Below are positions 47,641 through 56,383 of a stretch of DNA of 64,000 bases, in pieces (the first letter of the stretch is position 1; every line of letters begins with the position of its first letter). A model generated the notes under the pieces. It saw only the letters and a program-made list of their open reading frames with translations. It did no database searches and had not been told where the DNA came from. This stretch comes from an uncultured Clostridia bacterium. GTDB taxonomy: Bacteria; Bacillota; Clostridia; TANB77; CAG-508. The stretch is from contig CALXFE010000002.1 of NCBI GenBank assembly GCA_944387545.1, positions 3,611 through 67,610 on the forward strand, read 5' to 3'. The translations under genes were made by a program, and so were the position numbers.

Positions 47641-47660
47641 AATAAATGAAAGGTGAAAAT

Positions 47661-48635
47661 ATGTGTACTTGTATGACATTTAAAACAAAAGATGTTTATT
47701 TTGGAAGAAATTTAGATTTAGAATCTAATTTTGGAGAAAAAGTGATCGTAACACCTAGGAATTATGAATTTATTTTGAAGAACAATGAAAAAATGAAAAC
47801 AAAGTATGCCATGATAGGAATGGGAACGATTATAGAGGGATATCCATTATATGCAGATAGCGGAAATGAAAAAGGGCTATGTATGGCAGGATTATATTTT
47901 CCAGGAAATGCGGTCTATTTTGATGAAAAAGAAAATGTTATCAATATAGCTTCATTCGAATTGATTCCATGGTGTTTAGGAAATTTTTCAAGTATAGCAG
48001 AATTAAGAAACGTATTAGAAAAGATAAATATAACCAACCAACCAATTCAGAAAAATATACCAGTAGTAGATTTACATTGGATGATTAGTGATGAAAAAGA
48101 ATGTATTGTATTAGAACAAACGAATAACGGATTACAAATTTATGATAATCCTTATGGTGTTTTAACCAATAATCCACCTTTTGGTTATCATGATATCAAT
48201 ATAAATAATTATATGAATATATCTGCTAAATTTCCAACCAATACATTTTCAAGAGAAATTCCTTTGAAACCATATGGACAAGGAATGGGAATGATAGGAT
48301 TACCAGGAGATGCCACACCAGTTTCTAGATTTGTGAGGACAGTATTTTATAAATTTAATTCAATAACAGATGAAGATGAAGAAAGTTCTATTTCTCAATT
48401 TTTTCATATCTTAGATGCTGTTTCCATGATAAAGGGGAGTGTTATCACCAAAGAAAATCACTATGATATGACAACCTATTCTTCTTGTATGAATGCAAGC
48501 AAAGGCGTATACTACTTTAAAACTTACTATAATAATCAAATCAATGTAGTTTCATTAAATGAAAAAAATAAGAATGAAGATACATTGCAAATCTATGAAT
48601 TACCCAAAAGACAACATATACAATATTTAAATTGA
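47661..48635 (+). CDS. Choloylglycine hydrolase / bile salt hydrolase family (Ntn hydrolase)
   Basis: Cys2 nucleophile (MCT), GRNLD, NEKGL, VLTNNP, GLPGD...SRFVR. Confidence 0.9.
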   Translation: MCTCMTFKTKDVYFGRNLDLESNFGEKVIVTPRNYEFILKNNEKMKTKYAMIGMGTIIEGYPLYADSGNEKGLCMAGLYFPGNAVYFDEKENVINIASFELIPWCLGNFSSIAELRNVLEKINITNQPIQKNIPVVDLHWMISDEKECIVLEQTNNGLQIYDNPYGVLTNNPPFGYHDININNYMNISAKFPTNTFSREIPLKPYGQGMGMIGLPGDATPVSRFVRTVFYKFNSITDEDEESSISQFFHILDAVSMIKGSVITKENHYDMTTYSSCMNASKGVYYFKTYYNNQINVVSLNEKNKNEDTLQIYELPKRQHIQYLN

Positions 48636-48780: not shown

Positions 48781-49806
48781 ATGAAAAATATTAAAGACTA
48801 TACATTAGACGAATTAAAAGAAGAGCTAAAAGAAATTGGAGAAAAACCATTTCGAGCAGAACAAATATATAAATGGCTATATGAAGCAAGAGTATCTCAT
48901 TTTGATGAAATGACAAATTTGTCATTAGAATTAAGAGAAAAGTTAAAACAAGAATATGTAATCAAAGAATTTAACATATTAAAAGAACAAGTAGCAACCG
49001 ATGGAACTATAAAATATTTATTTGACGTGTTAGATGGAAATGCCATTGAAACTGTATTGATGAAATATCATCATGGATATAGTATTTGTGTATCTTCACA
49101 AATTGGATGTAAGATGGGATGTAAATTTTGTGCATCAACAGGAATTCCATTTGTAAGAAATCTAACAAGTGGGGAAATCATTGAACAAATCATGGCTGCT
49201 GAAAGAGACGAAAATATTAAAATTTCGAATATCGTATTTATGGGAATTGGAGAACCACTAAATAACTATGACAATGTCGTAAAAGCAATTAGAATTATCA
49301 ATCATCCAAAAGGGTTAAACATTGGTGCTAGACATATTAGTATATCTACAAGCGGTTTAGTTCCAAGAATTTACAAATTGGCAGAAGAAAACATACAATG
49401 TACATTATCTATTTCTTTACATGCAACAACTAATGAGAAAAGAAGTGAAATGATGCCAATTAATAATGCATTTCCAATAGAAGAATTATTACAAGCTTGC
49501 AAATCCTATATAGAAAAAACACATAGAAGAATTTCTTTCGAATATGCCTTAGCAAAAGAAAATAATGATAATTTAGAAGATGCCAAACGATTAGTAAAAA
49601 TGTTAAAAGGAATGCTTTGTCATGTCAATTTAATTCCCATTAACAAAATAGAAAATGGAACATATACCAAAAGTTCAAATGAAAATATCATGAAATTCAG
49701 AGATTACTTAAATGACCATGGAATTGTAGCAACCATTAGGAGAGAATTAGGCTCAGATATAGATGCAGCCTGTGGACAATTAAGGAGAAAAAATTTGAAC
49801 CATTAG
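48781..49806 (+). CDS. rlmN: 23S rRNA m2A2503 / tRNA methyltransferase RlmN
   Basis: CVSSQIGCKMGCKFC radical-SAM motif, FMGIGEP, AACGQL. Confidence 0.97.
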   Translation: MKNIKDYTLDELKEELKEIGEKPFRAEQIYKWLYEARVSHFDEMTNLSLELREKLKQEYVIKEFNILKEQVATDGTIKYLFDVLDGNAIETVLMKYHHGYSICVSSQIGCKMGCKFCASTGIPFVRNLTSGEIIEQIMAAERDENIKISNIVFMGIGEPLNNYDNVVKAIRIINHPKGLNIGARHISISTSGLVPRIYKLAEENIQCTLSISLHATTNEKRSEMMPINNAFPIEELLQACKSYIEKTHRRISFEYALAKENNDNLEDAKRLVKMLKGMLCHVNLIPINKIENGTYTKSSNENIMKFRDYLNDHGIVATIRRELGSDIDAACGQLRRKNLNH

Positions 49807-50059
49807 GGACGTGCCAAATCGGACATTTTTTGTCCAAAAGGGACAGACCTAATTTGTTATTGTAATTAATATAAAAAATAAAACAGAAAAATTATACATA
49901 TTTATATATTTTTTTCTGTTTTATTTTGTTTTTTTGTGAATTCTTCTAATATAATAATTTATAATTACAAAAAATAATTATAGATAGTTATACACTTTTA
50001 TTAGGTCTGTCCCTTTTGGACAAAAAATGTCCGATTTGGCACGTCCCTAATGGTTCAAA
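49794..50059. repeat. REPIN/MITE-like composite palindrome: perfect 60-bp inverted arms
   Basis: 49794-49853 is the exact reverse complement of 50000-50059; inner 17-bp stem 49875-49891/49911-49927. Confidence 0.9.
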
Positions 50060-52338
50060 ATTTTAAGCAAACTTTCAATATCTTTTTTACAATTCATCAT
50101 TTCATAGTCTTTAATAGCTTTTTGACAAAATTCTTGTGCTTTTTCAAAATCATTGATATATACAGAATATATGGTTTGTAATCGATAATATAAAGCTTCA
50201 TTTCGGATATCATCTAAATCATTGTCTGTTAGAAAGTTTTCGCAAGCTTTTAATTGTGTATTTGCTTTTTTCAAAAGATTTGTGTCTTTATTAGTTGCAT
50301 AATTTTCTAATAGTAAAGAAATTAATAAAAGGCGATAATCTGCTTGACCACGGGTAAAATTGGCAAGTTTGGCTTCTTCTAGACGTTGAATTAACATGTT
50401 ATATTTTAAATCAAAGTTATTTTCAATTTTTAAATAACATCTAGTAATCCATAAATCTGTTACCAATTTTCGATATTCATTAATATAAGGAAAATAATTT
50501 TCTTTAATATTTATCCATATATCATAGCTTTCTTTATAATCCTTTAAACAGTTACAAGTATACAAGGCTTTTACATGATAAAATAAGCAAACAATACGTT
50601 TTTCTAAAGAATCTTTTTCTTTGTCAACAATTTTTGAGGCAATAGCTAAATATTTCTCTGCTTCTTCCTGATTTTGTGATTTAGACATGATATTAATATA
50701 ATCACACAAAGCTTCTAATTCTTCATTTTTATCTTGAATTTCATTTGCCATTTTTGCTCTTTTTAAATGGAGAGAATCCTCACCTTTATCCCACATACCT
50801 CTAACATAAATATAGTATTTTAGATTTCTAATAATGGTAATATATTCTTTGTATAATTTATTTTCTTCTAACATATTTAAAACTTGTTTTGTGATATTCC
50901 ATTCATCTAATTCATCAAATAGTTTTAATTTAGAAATATCGTTATAACATTCACCCACATATGCAGATTTATCTATATAAAATTTTGCCAAATGTTTTAA
51001 CAATATATCTTTATGAAAATCTTCTTCAGAAGCATTTACCAAGACAAGTGTTTTGATTAAATTGTGCATATCTAATCTAGGATGATTTTGAATAATTGGA
51101 ATTAATAAATCATTTGTATAACATTCTGTAATCGCTTCTTGCCACTCGTTTGATAATATATCTAAATGTAATATGTAAGAAACAAGTTCAATCGATATGG
51201 TATATTTGAAATTTGCACAAATGATGACGATTTTTTTAGCGATGGGACTTAATTCTTTCCATATGTCATGAATGATTTTTTCTGACATGAGTTTATAATC
51301 TTCATTTGTTTTTGTATATTTAGAAATGGCATTTTCCAAAGAAACACCTATCTTATTGGCATTCACAATTTTTTTCATTAGATAGATAGAGGCAAACGGA
51401 ATACCGCCAGTAATGGAATATAATGTATCAACTAATGAAGGTTGCATATCCATAATTTTTTTGAAATCTTCTATTGATGCAAGCATAGTTTTTAATTCTT
51501 CTTTAGAAATGAAATCATTAATACAAAAATTAGTGCAATAGGTATCTAACTGATTTTCATACTGATGATAAGGAATAGAGGTAATCATTACCATTTTTGA
51601 AAATTGAGAAAAGTTTTTTATAAATGCAATGGTTTCATCTTGTATAATATCATCATCAAAATCGAATATAAGGATAGATTTTGTGTTTTTTATAAACTGT
51701 AAACAAGCATCATATTTCTCTTCGAGTTTGATTTCTGCTTTATTTTCTAAGTTAAAAAGCAAAATGGTATCTAAAATAGTAGATAGTTGATTTTCCTTTT
51801 TTAGATTGATCCAAATCATATTTTCAAATTTATTTTTTAAGCTCAAATCATACATATATGCCATAACCGATTTTGATTTTCCACCTAATTTATATCCATA
51901 AATATAAGCAATATTAATAGGATGATTTACAAAATCATCTAAAAACGAAGTTAGTTTTTGAGAGCGAATAATTTTGCTTAAGTCTTGAGGAATTAGATTG
52001 TTTTTGGTTTGGATAGTTGTATCCTGAAAAATAACGGTGTTTGTAGCAGATAAATAATTTTTAGCAAATGTATCAATTTTAGAATCATCCACTTGTACCA
52101 ATTTTGCATATTCTAGAATTCCTTGAAGAAAACTAGGAATGTCTTTTGGAATACTACCAGTTAAAAATTTTCGGATACTCACTTCTGCATAATGTGTATA
52201 ATCTGAAATTCTGGTATAGATATATGTTTTGCTAGGTGATTCTCCTTTTATATTATGCTTTTTAATAGATAATTTTATTTCATTAATAAAATCATATAAT
52301 AATTTTGCTCTATTTGTTTTTAAGATATCTTGTTCCAT
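50047..52338 (-). CDS. HTH-NB-ARC (STAND NTPase)-TPR protein, probable transcription regulator/sensor
   Basis: XRE-like N-terminus (ISDYTHYAEVSIRKFLTG), Walker A YGYKLGGKS, Walker B ILIFD, MITS, GGIPFA (GxP), MHNL (MHD-like), helical-repeat C-terminus; RBS ggagg before ATG 52338. Confidence 0.75.
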   Translation of the reverse strand: MEQDILKTNRAKLLYDFINEIKLSIKKHNIKGESPSKTYIYTRISDYTHYAEVSIRKFLTGSIPKDIPSFLQGILEYAKLVQVDDSKIDTFAKNYLSATNTVIFQDTTIQTKNNLIPQDLSKIIRSQKLTSFLDDFVNHPINIAYIYGYKLGGKSKSVMAYMYDLSLKNKFENMIWINLKKENQLSTILDTILLFNLENKAEIKLEEKYDACLQFIKNTKSILIFDFDDDIIQDETIAFIKNFSQFSKMVMITSIPYHQYENQLDTYCTNFCINDFISKEELKTMLASIEDFKKIMDMQPSLVDTLYSITGGIPFASIYLMKKIVNANKIGVSLENAISKYTKTNEDYKLMSEKIIHDIWKELSPIAKKIVIICANFKYTISIELVSYILHLDILSNEWQEAITECYTNDLLIPIIQNHPRLDMHNLIKTLVLVNASEEDFHKDILLKHLAKFYIDKSAYVGECYNDISKLKLFDELDEWNITKQVLNMLEENKLYKEYITIIRNLKYYIYVRGMWDKGEDSLHLKRAKMANEIQDKNEELEALCDYINIMSKSQNQEEAEKYLAIASKIVDKEKDSLEKRIVCLFYHVKALYTCNCLKDYKESYDIWINIKENYFPYINEYRKLVTDLWITRCYLKIENNFDLKYNMLIQRLEEAKLANFTRGQADYRLLLISLLLENYATNKDTNLLKKANTQLKACENFLTDNDLDDIRNEALYYRLQTIYSVYINDFEKAQEFCQKAIKDYEMMNCKKDIESLLKILNH

Positions 52339-52617
52339 AGGTTCCTCCATAAATAACAAAATCTATTTCTATTATATCATTATTTTACATAAAAGTACAA
52401 GAATAGAGAGAAATATACCCATAAAGAAAATAAAAATTGATAATTTTTTTATCAATTTTGAAAAACTGTATTTTGAAAAGTTTATCAAACAAGATTAACA
52501 TAAAATAAAACAGGCATATATTGAGCGTAAAACTAAACGCTTGAAAATGCTAAACTTGAATTCTTTAGTAAAGGATTTGTAACCAAAAACATTTAATGTA
52601 AAAAAGGAGGAGACAAG

Positions 52618-53697
52618 ATGATTTACAATTTAACATTAAGTGACAGGACACAGAAGAAAGTGCTTCGGGAGTTAGAAACAACAAAAAAGTTGATTTCAAA
52701 AGTTGCTACAAAACTTTCATCAACGCAGAAAACTTGTGATATTTATGCAATGTCTGATTTAGGAATGGCACATAATGTTACAAGAATGCGAGGTGGCTTC
52801 TTTACAGGAGCTGCATATGTCTGGGAACAACCAGATACTCCATTCATTCCTGTAGATACCACAATTAATGTATGTGGTACAGCTTTGTATAAAATAAATT
52901 TTGATATGGGTATAACAGAATTTAAAAAGAGATGTAAGCAAGTTTTGGCAGATTCATCAAGGTATGACTGGAATTTTACCAATGGTAACCATTTTATTTC
53001 TTTATGTTATTCGGAAAATAACATGGGAATGCGGGAAGGTTACTATATGCTTGTCCATGCTTCAGCATGCGAATACAAGGAAGAGTTGTATCCAGTTATA
53101 GGGAACTGGTACTATCAAGATATTTGCACTGAAAGACTTAATCATTATCGATATATAAGATATATTAAAGGAGATAAAGCAGAGAAGTTATATGAATGGG
53201 CAAAATTGTTGGAATCTTATAACAGAGAGCGAAACCATAATTTCTGTAAGAACGTTTTATCAGGAGATATGGGAGATGAAATCTTAAGTGTATCTCATTA
53301 TGGAATGCCAAGTATACATGAAGCATTGATTGGTGTTCAAAAGACTGCAGGACTTGCAACATTGCTCACGAGTCCAGGGAAAAATGTGTATATAGTGAAG
53401 AAAACAGAAAACGCTAAAAACAGCTATATACCACATGGTTTTGGATTAGAACTACCAGAAAAAAGTGATTTCACCTATCATAAAAATAGTATACAAATAG
53501 GGGAAAAGAAATTTTATTCTGGAAGTATTACCATTGGAGAGGATGCGATTAATCGGCATAGCTTTTCTGAAACTGATGAAAGTTTAAGAAAGCATATCAG
53601 AAAAATAGTACAGATTAACGAATTAGAGATTTGTGCAGAATTAAAACAGATTTGTTCATTTTCTGCGAATGGATTTCAAGTATGGAGAGGTAATTGA
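52618..53697 (+). CDS. Divergent RtcB-fold protein
   Basis: Ordered motifs MSD...GGFFTG, INVCG, NGNHF, VHAS, SHY, PHGFG correspond to RtcB MPD, DINCG, GNHF, HSGS, HN, HGAG. Confidence 0.65.
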   Translation: MIYNLTLSDRTQKKVLRELETTKKLISKVATKLSSTQKTCDIYAMSDLGMAHNVTRMRGGFFTGAAYVWEQPDTPFIPVDTTINVCGTALYKINFDMGITEFKKRCKQVLADSSRYDWNFTNGNHFISLCYSENNMGMREGYYMLVHASACEYKEELYPVIGNWYYQDICTERLNHYRYIRYIKGDKAEKLYEWAKLLESYNRERNHNFCKNVLSGDMGDEILSVSHYGMPSIHEALIGVQKTAGLATLLTSPGKNVYIVKKTENAKNSYIPHGFGLELPEKSDFTYHKNSIQIGEKKFYSGSITIGEDAINRHSFSETDESLRKHIRKIVQINELEICAELKQICSFSANGFQVWRGN

Positions 53698-53698
53698 T

Positions 53699-54235
53699 AT
53701 GGTATATGTAACAAGACATGGAGAAACAGACTGGAACTTGTATGGAAAAGTACAAGGAAAAGCAGATATTTTGCTTAATAGTAAAGGAATAGAACAGGCA
53801 AAAGAAACAATGGAAAAGCTAAAAGAAGAAAATATTGATTTGATTATCTGTTCACCTTTAAAAAGAGCAAGACAGACGGCAGAAATCATTAATTCAGAGA
53901 AAAATATTCCCATTATCTTAGACGAAAGAATTTCTGAAAGAGATTTCGGAGAAATGGAAGGAATGTGTAAAAATGACTTTGATTTTCAGGCTTTTTGGAA
54001 TTATGAGAAAAATGTAACTTATGAAAAAGCTGAAAATATCAGAGTTTTCTTTAATAGAATATTTTTGTTTTTAGAAGATATAAAGAAAAGCTATAAAAAC
54101 AAGAATATTTTATTAGTAACTCATGGAGGTGTTAGTATAGCCATTAATTGTTATTTAAATGGAATACCTGAAAGTGGAGCATGTTTACCGCTATGTATTA
54201 AAAATTGTGAGGTAAAAAGTTTTCAATTTGAATAA
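53699..54235 (+). CDS. Histidine phosphatase (PGM/CobC branch)
   Basis: RHGET.WN, SPLKRA.QT, ERDFG.MEG, VTHGG. Confidence 0.92.
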   Translation: MVYVTRHGETDWNLYGKVQGKADILLNSKGIEQAKETMEKLKEENIDLIICSPLKRARQTAEIINSEKNIPIILDERISERDFGEMEGMCKNDFDFQAFWNYEKNVTYEKAENIRVFFNRIFLFLEDIKKSYKNKNILLVTHGGVSIAINCYLNGIPESGACLPLCIKNCEVKSFQFE

Positions 54236-54253
54236 CCGATTAGGAGAATGCAT

Positions 54254-54784
54254 ATGAAACAAATTGTTTTTTTGAGACACGCAGAAACTAACCTGAACAA
54301 AGAGGGACGGTTTTGTGGAGAAATAGATACAGATATTACAGAAGAGGGAAAAAAACAGGCAGAAAAAATGAGAGAAACATTTAAAGGCTATCATTTTGAT
54401 GCAATGTATTGTTCACCTCTTAAAAGAACCAAACAGACCTTAGAGGCTATTTTTCCAAACCGGAAATTCATTGAAGAAGATGGCTTTACAGAAATCAGTC
54501 TTGGAGATTGGGAAGGTAAAAAGAAAAAAAGCGTAAATCAATCTTTAAGAAAAGCTTTTCAAAAAGGAGATTATGTACCACCTCACGGTGAAAGGAATGC
54601 AGATGTGGAAGCAAGAGTAAGAGAAACAATTGAAAGGATTTTTGCAACTTATCCAGATGGTTCTGTAATTCTGGTATGCACAAGCAACGGAATTATGAGA
54701 ACAATTAAGAGAATCTATGACATCAAGAATGAAAAAATGATGTCAGGCAACTTAGAATACTTTTCCTTAAAGAGAGAAGCATAA
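54254..54784 (+). CDS. Histidine phosphatase family protein (atypical)
   Basis: RHAET, SPLKRT.QT, EISLGDWEG, PHGE; second His replaced (CTSNG). Confidence 0.85.
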   Translation: MKQIVFLRHAETNLNKEGRFCGEIDTDITEEGKKQAEKMRETFKGYHFDAMYCSPLKRTKQTLEAIFPNRKFIEEDGFTEISLGDWEGKKKKSVNQSLRKAFQKGDYVPPHGERNADVEARVRETIERIFATYPDGSVILVCTSNGIMRTIKRIYDIKNEKMMSGNLEYFSLKREA

Positions 54785-54795
54785 AGTGAAAATTA

Positions 54796-54835
54796 AAAAG
54801 AGGAGTCTAGAATAGAAAGTTCTAGACTCCTTTTT
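54796..54835. terminator. Bidirectional terminator at right end of accessory operon
   Basis: aggagtctagaa / ttctagactcct with A and T flanks. Confidence 0.85.
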
Positions 54836-54904: not shown

Positions 54905-56383
54905 TTAAAGAATGATACAAATCAATCCACCACTACCTTCATTAACAATTCTTTCTAATGTTTCTTGTAATTTAATTTGTGCTTCTTCAGGCATTTTTGC
55001 CAGTTTGGTTTGTAAGCCTTCATTTACCAATTCATGTAGACTTTTTCCAAAGATATTTGATTCCCAGATTTTTTGAGGATCACTTTCAAATCCTGAAAGT
55101 AAGTAATTGACTAATTCTTCTGATTGTTTTTCAGAACCAACAATTGGGCATACTTCTGTTGCAACATTTGTCTTAATAAGGTGAATAGAAGGAGCCATGG
55201 CTTTTAATTTTACGCCAAATTTTGATCCTTGTTTTACCATTTCTGGTTCTTCTAAGATTAATTCATCCATTGAAGGTGTTACAATTCCATAACCTTTTCT
55301 ATTAACTTCATCTAAGGCATAAGCGATTTTATCATATTTCTTTTTCACATCAGCTAATTCAGAAATAATACTAAATAAATCGCCTTCATTAGAAACTGGA
55401 ACACCTGTAATTTCTGTAAGCACTTGGTAGAATAATTCTTCTTTTAAGGTGATTTCTACATTTACTTTTCCAGTACCTAACTGAATATCTGTTATAGAAG
55501 TTTTAGAAATGATTTCTGTTTGTTTAATGGTATCTGCACAGCTGGATATTTCTTTTAATACATTTACATTAGAAAAAGCATCTTTAATTTCTTTATATAA
55601 TTCTGTTTTTAAAGGGTGTGACATATCTAATCCATCAATCCATCTAGGAAATTTGATGCAGATTTGGTCAACAGGGAATTCATATAATACTTTAGAAAAC
55701 ATGGTATTAATATTTTCAATCGTTAAATATTCACAATTAAGAGGCATAACAGATGTATTGTATTTTTCGCTTAGTTGTTCTGCAAGTTCTTTAGTATATT
55801 CTGAATCAGGATCATTTGAATTTAATAAAATGATAAAAGGCTTGTTTAAAGCTTTTAATTCATTGACTACTCTTTCCTCAGCTTTTACATAATCTTCTCT
55901 TGGAATATCGGTAATACTTCCATCGGTTGTAACTAAAATACCAATGGTAGAATGTTCTTCAATAACTTTTTTTGTTCCAATTTCAGCAGCAGTTTCAAAA
56001 GGAATTTCTTCGTCAGACCAAGGCGTTTTTACCATTCTAGGCATATCATCTTCTAAGTAACCAATAGCATTATCTACTAAATAACCTACACAATCAACAA
56101 GTCTGGTTTTAAATTTTAAATTATCATTTAAAGTAATTTCAATAGCCTCATTTGGAACAAATTTAGGCTCTGTTGTCATAATTGTTCTACCACCAGCACT
56201 TTGTGGCAGTTCATCTTTTGCTCTTTCTTTTTTGTATTCATTATCAATGTTGGGAATCACCAATAAATCCATAAATCTTTTTATAAAAGTAGACTTACCA
56301 GTTCTTACAGGACCGACAACACCTACATAAATATCTCCATCAGTCCTTTTTGCGATGTCTTGATACAATCTTGTATTTTCCAT
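54905..56383 (-). CDS. spoIVA: Stage IV sporulation protein A
   Basis: GDIYVGVVGPVRTGKSTFIKRF, DELPQS, GSGGLICIIL; 492 aa. Confidence 0.98.
   Translation of the reverse strand: MENTRLYQDIAKRTDGDIYVGVVGPVRTGKSTFIKRFMDLLVIPNIDNEYKKERAKDELPQSAGGRTIMTTEPKFVPNEAIEITLNDNLKFKTRLVDCVGYLVDNAIGYLEDDMPRMVKTPWSDEEIPFETAAEIGTKKVIEEHSTIGILVTTDGSITDIPREDYVKAEERVVNELKALNKPFIILLNSNDPDSEYTKELAEQLSEKYNTSVMPLNCEYLTIENINTMFSKVLYEFPVDQICIKFPRWIDGLDMSHPLKTELYKEIKDAFSNVNVLKEISSCADTIKQTEIISKTSITDIQLGTGKVNVEITLKEELFYQVLTEITGVPVSNEGDLFSIISELADVKKKYDKIAYALDEVNRKGYGIVTPSMDELILEEPEMVKQGSKFGVKLKAMAPSIHLIKTNVATEVCPIVGSEKQSEELVNYLLSGFESDPQKIWESNIFGKSLHELVNEGLQTKLAKMPEEAQIKLQETLERIVNEGSGGLICIIL

Follow-up and report, generated by a model that had tools for sequence, protein, structure and literature searches.

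What a four-gene cassette built around a distant relative of the ligase RtcB may do for its host is the question raised by a 64,000-nt stretch of DNA (hereafter the window) from an uncultured Clostridia bacterium (assembly GCA_944387545.1, contig CALXFE010000002.1, positions 3,611 to 67,610). The cassette lies between rlmN and spoIVA and comprises a STAND-class regulator on the minus strand (50047-52359, a 770-aa open reading frame, ORF) and, divergent from it on the plus strand, an RtcB-fold enzyme of 359 aa (52618-53697) and two histidine phosphatases, A (53699-54235) and B (54254-54784). A preliminary description made from the letters of the window had placed four genes here, and all four were recovered from the ORF list and Pfam assignments, with no further ORF between the two neighbours. 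The cassette is conserved and moves horizontally between genomes. The analysis establishes the fold and invariant residues of the enzyme, the linkage of the genes, the class of the regulator and the conservation of the operator; DNA binding, induction, nucleotidylation, a substrate and a role of the phosphatase are what we infer. The reading we tentatively favour is that of an inducible module that would process the phosphate ends of nucleic acids or nucleotides in end-healing or repair.

The fold of the 359-aa protein was one of the two points on which the preliminary description hung, and the protein does adopt the RtcB fold, which extends over approximately 290 residues at an identity to RtcB of 10-14%. 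No match to the protein was found in Pfam at E <= 1, and so none to PF01139; NCBIfam and PADLOC gave no match, nor did the PDB sequences, searched with the single sequence and with a 29-sequence profile. The family itself was represented by 267 matches in a collection of 5.8 billion proteins and by 327 representatives at E <= 1e-3 among clusters of 50% identity, 130 of them at E <= 1e-30. Alignment of the family profile by hhalign with 14 canonical RtcB sequences, drawn from genomes of the same class, gave a probability of 88% (E 3.7e-7) in global mode and 40% (E 2.9e-4) in local mode. In these alignments D47 falls on the MPD Asp, C86 on the RtcB Cys, N124-H125-F126 on NHF, H147 on the HSGS His and H273 on the HGAG His. 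All of these residues and H227 are invariant across 29 stand-alone members of the family, every residue named in RtcB order by the preliminary description among them, and the conserved RtcB-like residues are also kept in 30 members in which the domain is fused to others. Also invariant is P272-H273-G274, which is aligned to the HGAG motif of the nucleophilic His and reads PHGWGQ in the fused clade. Judged from these alignments, the enzyme appears to keep both the Cys/His metal site of RtcB and the His that is nucleotidylated there. Relative to canonical RtcB, hhalign shows approximately 90 residues missing between the Cys and NHF. The further remark that the protein is shorter than typical RtcB proved weak and was dropped, as the 14 canonical proteins of the same class range from 366 to 480 aa and include RtcBs of 366-374 aa.

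Directly behind the enzyme, phosphatase A is a phosphoglycerate mutase (PGM)-type protein of the family His_Phos_1 (PF00300, E 8e-46) with a complete catalytic set (RHG..R..E..THG). Its longest ORF begins at 53669, and its probable start is the ATG at 53699, one base past the TGA of the enzyme (53695-53697) and with GGAGAGG nine bases upstream; the 1-nt gap and a ribosome-binding site (RBS) within the upstream gene indicate that the two are translationally coupled, in line with the tight coupling described beforehand. Phosphatase B (PF00300, E 2.3e-39), with an ORF from 54248 and a probable start at ATG 54254 behind AGGAG, carries RHA..R..D..TSN, in which the nucleophile is kept and the distal His is replaced by Ser. 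This loss, noted earlier for the window protein, was present in all 14 orthologues of its clade examined, whereas the single partner phosphatases of every other clade retain the distal His. The best NCBIfam similarities of the phosphatases were to ribazole and phosphoserine phosphatases, all of them under the curated cut-offs. Prediction of a complex between the RtcB-like protein and phosphatase A returned a score of 0.00, which is uninformative either way. In the DNA contig of one relative, position 53848 is joined to 54410, so that 561 nt drop out and the two phosphatase genes become one, and the sole phosphatase of L023 (loci of interest being L023, L025 and L029) combines a type A RHG with a type B TSN; together these suggest recombination between the paralogues.

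Linkage was surveyed in 80 loci of the stand-alone form, on contigs from one genome per species, and in 80 metagenome loci of the fused form. A His_Phos_1 gene is the immediate downstream neighbour, in the same orientation, in 63 of the 80 stand-alone loci, three more of which end at a contig edge, and is directly next in 75 of the 80 fused loci, often with a few-base overlap. The phosphatase is an almost obligatory, translationally coupled partner of the enzyme. The regulator upstream is a co-directional LysR protein at 33 of the 80 stand-alone loci (by Pfam) and a divergent STAND protein at 26. All four genes in this arrangement were seen solely in the close clade between rlmN and spoIVA, at 11 of its 18 loci; of the other seven, five have one phosphatase, one is cut off by the end of its contig and one, L028, retains the enzyme gene without the others. 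The expectation that the four genes would be linked in other genomes was thus borne out for the enzyme-phosphatase pair and for a share of the STAND regulators, the full set being confined to this clade. On a quick maximum-likelihood tree (IQ-TREE), with 10 of the 80 fused loci as outgroup and two of the 80 stand-alone loci left out for split or short enzyme ORFs, all STAND-linked enzymes fell into one group (Shimodaira-Hasegawa-like approximate likelihood-ratio test, SH-aLRT, 83). A well-supported LysR subclade is nested within this STAND group, and regulators have therefore been exchanged.

The regulator ORF begins at TTG 52359; as its homologues start at a Met that lies seven codons further on, ATG 52338 is the probable start (763 aa). 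It consists of an N-terminal helical domain with a helix-turn-helix (HTH)-like stretch at approximately aa 10-106, a P-loop NTPase, and a C-terminal half (approximately aa 450-770) of winged-helix and TPR-like helical-repeat character. Fifty relatives were found, and in the regulator alignment the Walker A motif (GYKLGGKS; G155-x4-G160-K161-S) and the Walker B residue D233 are invariant. The 770-aa protein had no match in Pfam, NCBIfam, PADLOC or the PDB sequences; among 14 family members, NB-ARC was matched in Pfam by five and TPR by two, the window protein matching neither. Its predicted model (predicted local distance difference test, pLDDT, 83) gave 149 Foldseek matches at E <= 1e-3, with 6mfv, a STAND protein with TPR, at the top (E 1.3e-11), and CED-4, Apaf-1, plant NLRs and Avs proteins (Avs3, EfAvs5) further down. 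According to this model, the protein belongs to the STAND NTPases and ends in a helical-repeat region. Its N-terminal 100 residues are helical and contain an invariant stretch, EVSIRKFLTG, that resembles an XRE-type HTH. No Pfam HTH was matched by the regulator, and an Atlas feature search placed Cro/C1 HTH clusters nearest at 0.88, under the 0.9 mark, which is a lead only; an HTH at the N-terminus is probable. The HTH-STAND-TPR architecture assigned to the protein beforehand is thus supported, its STAND-TPR part by the Walker motifs and the Foldseek match to 6mfv.

A candidate operator for this regulator was found in the divergent intergenic region. The sequence TTGATAATTTTTTTATCAA at 52437-52455 is a perfect palindrome (TTGATAA-N5-TTATCAA), and its arms extend to 52433-52443 and 52449-52459 with 100% complementarity. 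With fixed spacing and at most two mismatches it recurs at all 26 STAND loci, including those whose enzymes are only 42-50% identical, whereas the palindrome core was found upstream of the enzyme gene at none of the 54 loci without STAND. When the intergenic region of one STAND locus was shuffled 2000 times, the palindrome appeared zero times. Because of this 26/26 versus 0/54 distribution, and because LysR takes the place of STAND at 33 loci, the STAND protein is most likely a dedicated DNA-binding transcription factor of the cassette, with binding expected at this palindrome. A consensus match to a promoter (TTAACA-16-TATATT, 52495-52522, plus strand) lies approximately 40 nt downstream of the palindrome and would serve the enzyme operon, and a second promoter-like site on the minus strand (52455-52427), also a consensus match, overlaps it; promoter-like sites in the region number 21, fewer than the 33.6 in shuffles. 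The enzyme gene is preceded by an RBS (GGAGGAG, 52606-52612). The core TTGATA-N7-TATCAA has two sites in the 1.63-Mb genome, the other being at G000:C12:9984-10002 (L190).

Many members of the family are 760-1060 aa long and carry the RtcB-like domain at the C-terminus, and the stand-alone and fused clades are approximately 28-30% identical. The N-termini of the fused forms are TIR (PADLOC TIR-TM, E 1e-22), Metallophos (PDC-S60, E 6e-29) or of no assigned family, and the PADLOC model 'Effector endonuclease' was also among the matches of these N-terminal domains. A shared middle domain of approximately 250 aa obtained only low Atlas scores (DUF5919 at 0.81), and the fused-form profile matched nothing but TIR chains in the PDB. 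In one protein, P0147, a STAND NTPase and helical repeats precede the RtcB-like domain; its repeats resemble those of the window regulator weakly in hhalign (E 1.8e-4, probability 48%). Neighbouring genes of the fused clade encode ThsB_TIR, ThsA_Macro, NACHT/nSTAND NTPases, an AAA_21 ATPase and an Eco57I-type methylase, together with transposases, recombinases and a group II intron reverse transcriptase. The fused clade sits in a setting of defence islands and mobile elements. At L111-L116 the TIR-RtcB-like gene with its phosphatase has a ThsB-like TIR gene behind it (e.g. L112:3412-7954), and at five of these six loci (L112-L116) a ThsA Macro-domain gene comes after that, which may represent one system or two neighbours. 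The overall interpretation offered in the preliminary description, a repair enzyme under a STAND sensor in place of RtcR or a repurposed RtcB fold, is thus supported in part, the conserved operator fitting a STAND protein in the place of RtcR; with LysR substituting for STAND at 33 loci and a sister clade fused to TIR or Metallophos, the picture differs from the one drawn there.

If the tentatively favoured reading is right, the repeat half of the regulator would sense a signal, and the HTH-STAND protein would bind the single palindromic operator in the divergent promoter. The signal would turn on the operon for the RtcB-fold enzyme and the coupled PGM-type histidine phosphatase or phosphatases. 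The enzyme would then activate or open a terminal or 2',3'-cyclic phosphate in a metal- and nucleoside triphosphate (NTP)-dependent manner, presumably via a covalent His-nucleoside monophosphate, on a phosphate-ended RNA, DNA or nucleotide. The phosphatase may strip the remaining phosphomonoester or reset the substrate, and the two would constitute an inducible end-healing or repair module under stress or conflict. Additional components found at other loci bear on this chemistry. A GDPD domain is fused to the partner phosphatase in a 585-aa protein (scanned in L088:3265-5022, to which L087 and L089 are near-identical), and an MBL-fold hydrolase neighbours the pair (domain tested in L049; cluster in 6 loci). 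As third parts, GDPD, MBL-fold and Metallophos domains fit phosphodiester, cyclic-phosphate or monoester end chemistry.

Several observations weigh against end-healing or repair. In RtcB, the Asp three residues before the Cys is a metal ligand, and the Glu of NHFxE, the Arg of HGAGR and the C-terminal Lys-Gly make guanine or phosphate contacts. The Asp is missing in all 29 sequences, where the motif is T82-x-N84-V-C86 and hhalign sets T82 opposite the RtcB Asp; the Glu position is S128, in a variable column, the Arg position is a variable L277, and H227, although invariant, lies 10 columns off the His of the RtcB HN motif in both hhalign modes. Of the alterations listed in the preliminary description, the losses of Asp and Glu therefore hold for the enzyme, and the lack of a Lys near the C-terminus holds for the window protein, most relatives having SKxG. 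With Asp, Glu and Arg lost, the choice of NTP, and even nucleotidylation itself, may differ from that of RtcB. No RNA-binding domain was found in the enzyme, and the isoelectric point (pI) gives no separation of the family from canonical RtcB. Removal of a 3'-phosphate by the phosphatase would oppose RtcB-type ligation, so that 'repair' may amount to healing without sealing. Furthermore, LysR and MalT/GutR-like regulators usually respond to small metabolites, and in the genus of the window the gene was present in only 4 of 36 genomes, in two of them with an in-frame stop and in one as a fragment only.

The regulators and the altered active site can also be read in favour of a small-molecule phosphoester pathway, in which a repurposed RtcB fold would form or open a cyclic or diester phosphate on a metabolite; examples would be a phosphorylated xenobiotic, a 2',3'-cyclic nucleotide or a cyclic phosphate of glycerol or inositol. 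The phosphatase would free the phosphate, and the LysR or STAND protein would sense the substrate. Regulators of both kinds (LysR at 33/80 loci, HTH-STAND at 26/80) usually bind small inducers, and the GDPD-phosphatase fusion of L088, the MBL-fold hydrolase beside the pair in some loci, the loss of the RtcB Asp, NHFxE Glu and HGAGR Arg, and the resemblance of the phosphatases, below the NCBIfam cut-offs, to ribazole and phosphoserine phosphatases are all in keeping with such a pathway. We nevertheless regard it as rather unlikely, since in a sister clade the domain, with the same conserved residues, is fused to TIR or Metallophos in a neighbourhood of defence and mobile genes, the enzyme-phosphatase pair is not repeatedly accompanied by a transporter or another catabolic gene, and the cassette is carried by mobilisable elements. 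The same sister clade raises the prospect of a defence or conflict system, with the enzyme-phosphatase pair as an immune core, the STAND protein as an NLR-like sensor beyond its part as a transcription factor, and the RtcB-like enzyme as trigger or effector, e.g. sensing or altering RNA ends in phage attack. The TIR-TM or PDC-S60 domains of the fused forms with their Thoeris-type, NACHT/nSTAND and mobile neighbours, the joining of STAND NTPase, repeats and RtcB-like domain in P0147 with its weak resemblance to the regulator, and a patchy occurrence with mobility genes beside some stand-alone forms are consistent with it; none of the four window proteins, however, matches a PADLOC-DB 2.0 model, the stand-alone cassette has no evident toxic effector, and the conserved operator and LysR exchange point to plain transcriptional control. 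The rlmN and spoIVA flanks, moreover, are constant in the close clade, which looks vertically kept and not like a shifting island, and we consider this explanation unlikely.

A broader proposal, which we hold to be somewhat doubtful, is that the RtcB-fold domain and the phosphatase form the core of an unrecognised family of bacterial conflict systems, in which the phosphatase would reset an RNA or nucleotide signal that is read or rewritten; the output could then be a TIR or Metallophos fusion, a STAND fusion as in P0147 or, in the window, transcription through a STAND protein that gained an HTH. It is highly improbable that the enzyme is a very divergent housekeeping RtcB RNA ligase standing in for a missing canonical one. 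The fold and core residues would agree with that role, as would the 97%-complete genome, in which no PF01139, and so no canonical RtcB, was found. Neither RtcA (PF01137) nor archease (PF01951) was found there, and the absence of all three is also in keeping with the favoured end-processing reading. Against a housekeeping role, the enzyme has lost several residues of RtcB, an obligatory phosphatase partner is foreign to RtcB operons, and the gene was found in only 4 of 36 genomes of the genus, two with an in-frame stop. RtcB is missing in 46 of 61 genomes sampled from the class and is therefore dispensable there, so no essential role follows for the cassette.

To our knowledge, the RtcB fold is unique among those well studied in ligating 3'-phosphate and 5'-OH ends. 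In bacterial Pnkp/Hen1 heal-and-seal repair, a Metallophos-type end-healing phosphoesterase works with a ligase using ATP and 5'-P/3'-OH chemistry. The fused clade likewise joins Metallophos to an RtcB-like domain, whereas the ligase fold and chemistry differ and no kinase or methyltransferase was found here; that TIR can replace Metallophos in this clade argues for an effector role. MalT and GutR are STAND transcription activators that combine a DNA-binding HTH, a STAND ATPase and a repeat sensor. The window regulator shares this order, with a probable HTH, and its single adjacent operon, but is without a sequence match to a named family, and a relative of its sensor may be fused to the enzyme in P0147. 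Its STAND fold, with Avs3 and EfAvs5 among the Foldseek matches, recalls Avs-type defence, and the TIR or Metallophos N-termini and Thoeris-like neighbours of the fused clade recall Thoeris-type defence; unlike these, the window proteins have no PADLOC match and the STAND protein has a probable HTH and a candidate operator instead of an effector domain. Control of the rtcBA repair operon by the divergent sensor-regulator RtcR is described in two reports (PMC11090510; PMC7790460). The cassette resembles that system in the RtcB fold, the aligned Cys, NHF, HSGS His and HG-motif His, and a divergent, dedicated sensor-regulator. It differs in that its partner is a histidine phosphatase and not the cyclase RtcA, and in that its regulator is an HTH-STAND-TPR or LysR protein and not a sigma-54/CARF protein. 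The enzyme itself departs from RtcB in its 10-14% identity, the absence of a PF01139 match, the approximately 90 missing residues between Cys and NHF and, in the window enzyme, the lost Asp, Glu and Arg.

A further parallel is PrfH-RtcB2, which is reported to act against an RNA-cutting toxin as a mobile accessory module of two genes (PMC9223846, PMC13166195). Both are mobile accessory modules around an RtcB-fold enzyme, whereas RtcB2 is a recognisable RtcB with a release-factor-homologue partner, and here a divergent enzyme is paired with a phosphatase and a link to a toxin is not established. In the literature searched, neither the pairing of an RtcB-like family with a histidine phosphatase nor the TIR or Metallophos fusions of such a family were found described, although an earlier mention is possible. 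The family would thus represent a second branch of the RtcB fold, missed by sequence searches, that apparently keeps the catalytic core and has relatives bearing immune effector domains. Knowledge of its substrate could bring to light new RNA or nucleotide end-processing, a new logic of repair or immunity among gut Firmicutes, or a ligase-like tool. The STAND regulator with its single, sharply conserved operator would furthermore offer a clean model of NLR-like ATPases as transcription switches.

The occurrence of the cassette combines stable and mobile settings. In the close clade (L014-L031), spoIVA is downstream in 17 of 18 loci and rlmN upstream in 15, the remaining flanks lying past the contig end; elsewhere the contexts are unrelated, e.g. 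beside rpoC, polC or yqfD, and some stand-alone forms adjoin Mob_Pre, serine recombinase or RepA_N genes. At L087-L089, the enzyme is immediately preceded by a RepA_N replication-initiator gene. The enzyme gene was present in 0 of 24 genomes from other families of the order. No relative was found by tblastn in 72,556 plasmid records, and one was found in 50,697 phage records (L108, MT837290.1, 7.2 kb, an unverified 'Bacteriophage sp.'). This record contains a relaxase fragment, an 856-aa fused RtcB-like gene, a directly following His_Phos_1 phosphatase and ruvC, and probably represents a mobilisable element or part of a chromosome and not a phage; viral contigs scanned with the fused-form alignment gave no match. 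Signs of decay are seen in the close clade at L031, where the enzyme is split into ORFs of 107 and 245 aa, and at L028, where only the enzyme is left between rlmN and spoIVA. The in-frame stops (TAA, TAG), one each, are at G012:C3:72158-73273 and G016:C28:15035-16147 in the same genus.

The cassette lies in an AT-rich stretch (GC content 0.23-0.34) of an assembly of 1.63 Mb in 54 contigs, and both of the borders proposed in the preliminary description, a GGGAC element and a terminator, were confirmed. On the left, downstream of rlmN (48781-49806; RlmN_N and Radical_SAM), a GGGAC-rich inverted repeat has 65-nt arms (49789-49853 and 50000-50064) that are 98% complementary, lie 146 nt apart and reach into the last codons and stop regions of the convergent rlmN and 770-aa genes. 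An arm of approximately 50 nt is dispersed over the 1.63-Mb genome in 44 matches, which frequently form inverted pairs separated by 80-300 nt, and it therefore looks like a miniature inverted-repeat transposable element (MITE) or a repetitive extragenic palindromic (REP) element. DNA contigs of relatives omit approximately 150-270 nt at 49789-50064, so the insert at the left border is polymorphic. On the right, a hairpin terminator (54801-54831) of 12 pairs, five of them G-C, with T-runs is common to the cassette and the convergent spoIVA (54905-56383).

Near-identical DNA is present in chicken-gut metagenome runs. Metatranscriptome contigs from two chicken-gut runs, belonging to relatives approximately 90% identical, cover all four genes, and one of them (53544-54163) crosses the enzyme-phosphatase junction; as DNA carry-over is possible and a contig is not equal to a transcript, these contigs are a weak hint of expression of the four genes. 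Outside the cassette, the window also encodes a 329-aa ORF (47646-48635) with a Cys near its N-terminus (MKGENMCTCMTFK...), which we take to be reminiscent of N-terminal-nucleophile hydrolases of the bile-salt-hydrolase type.

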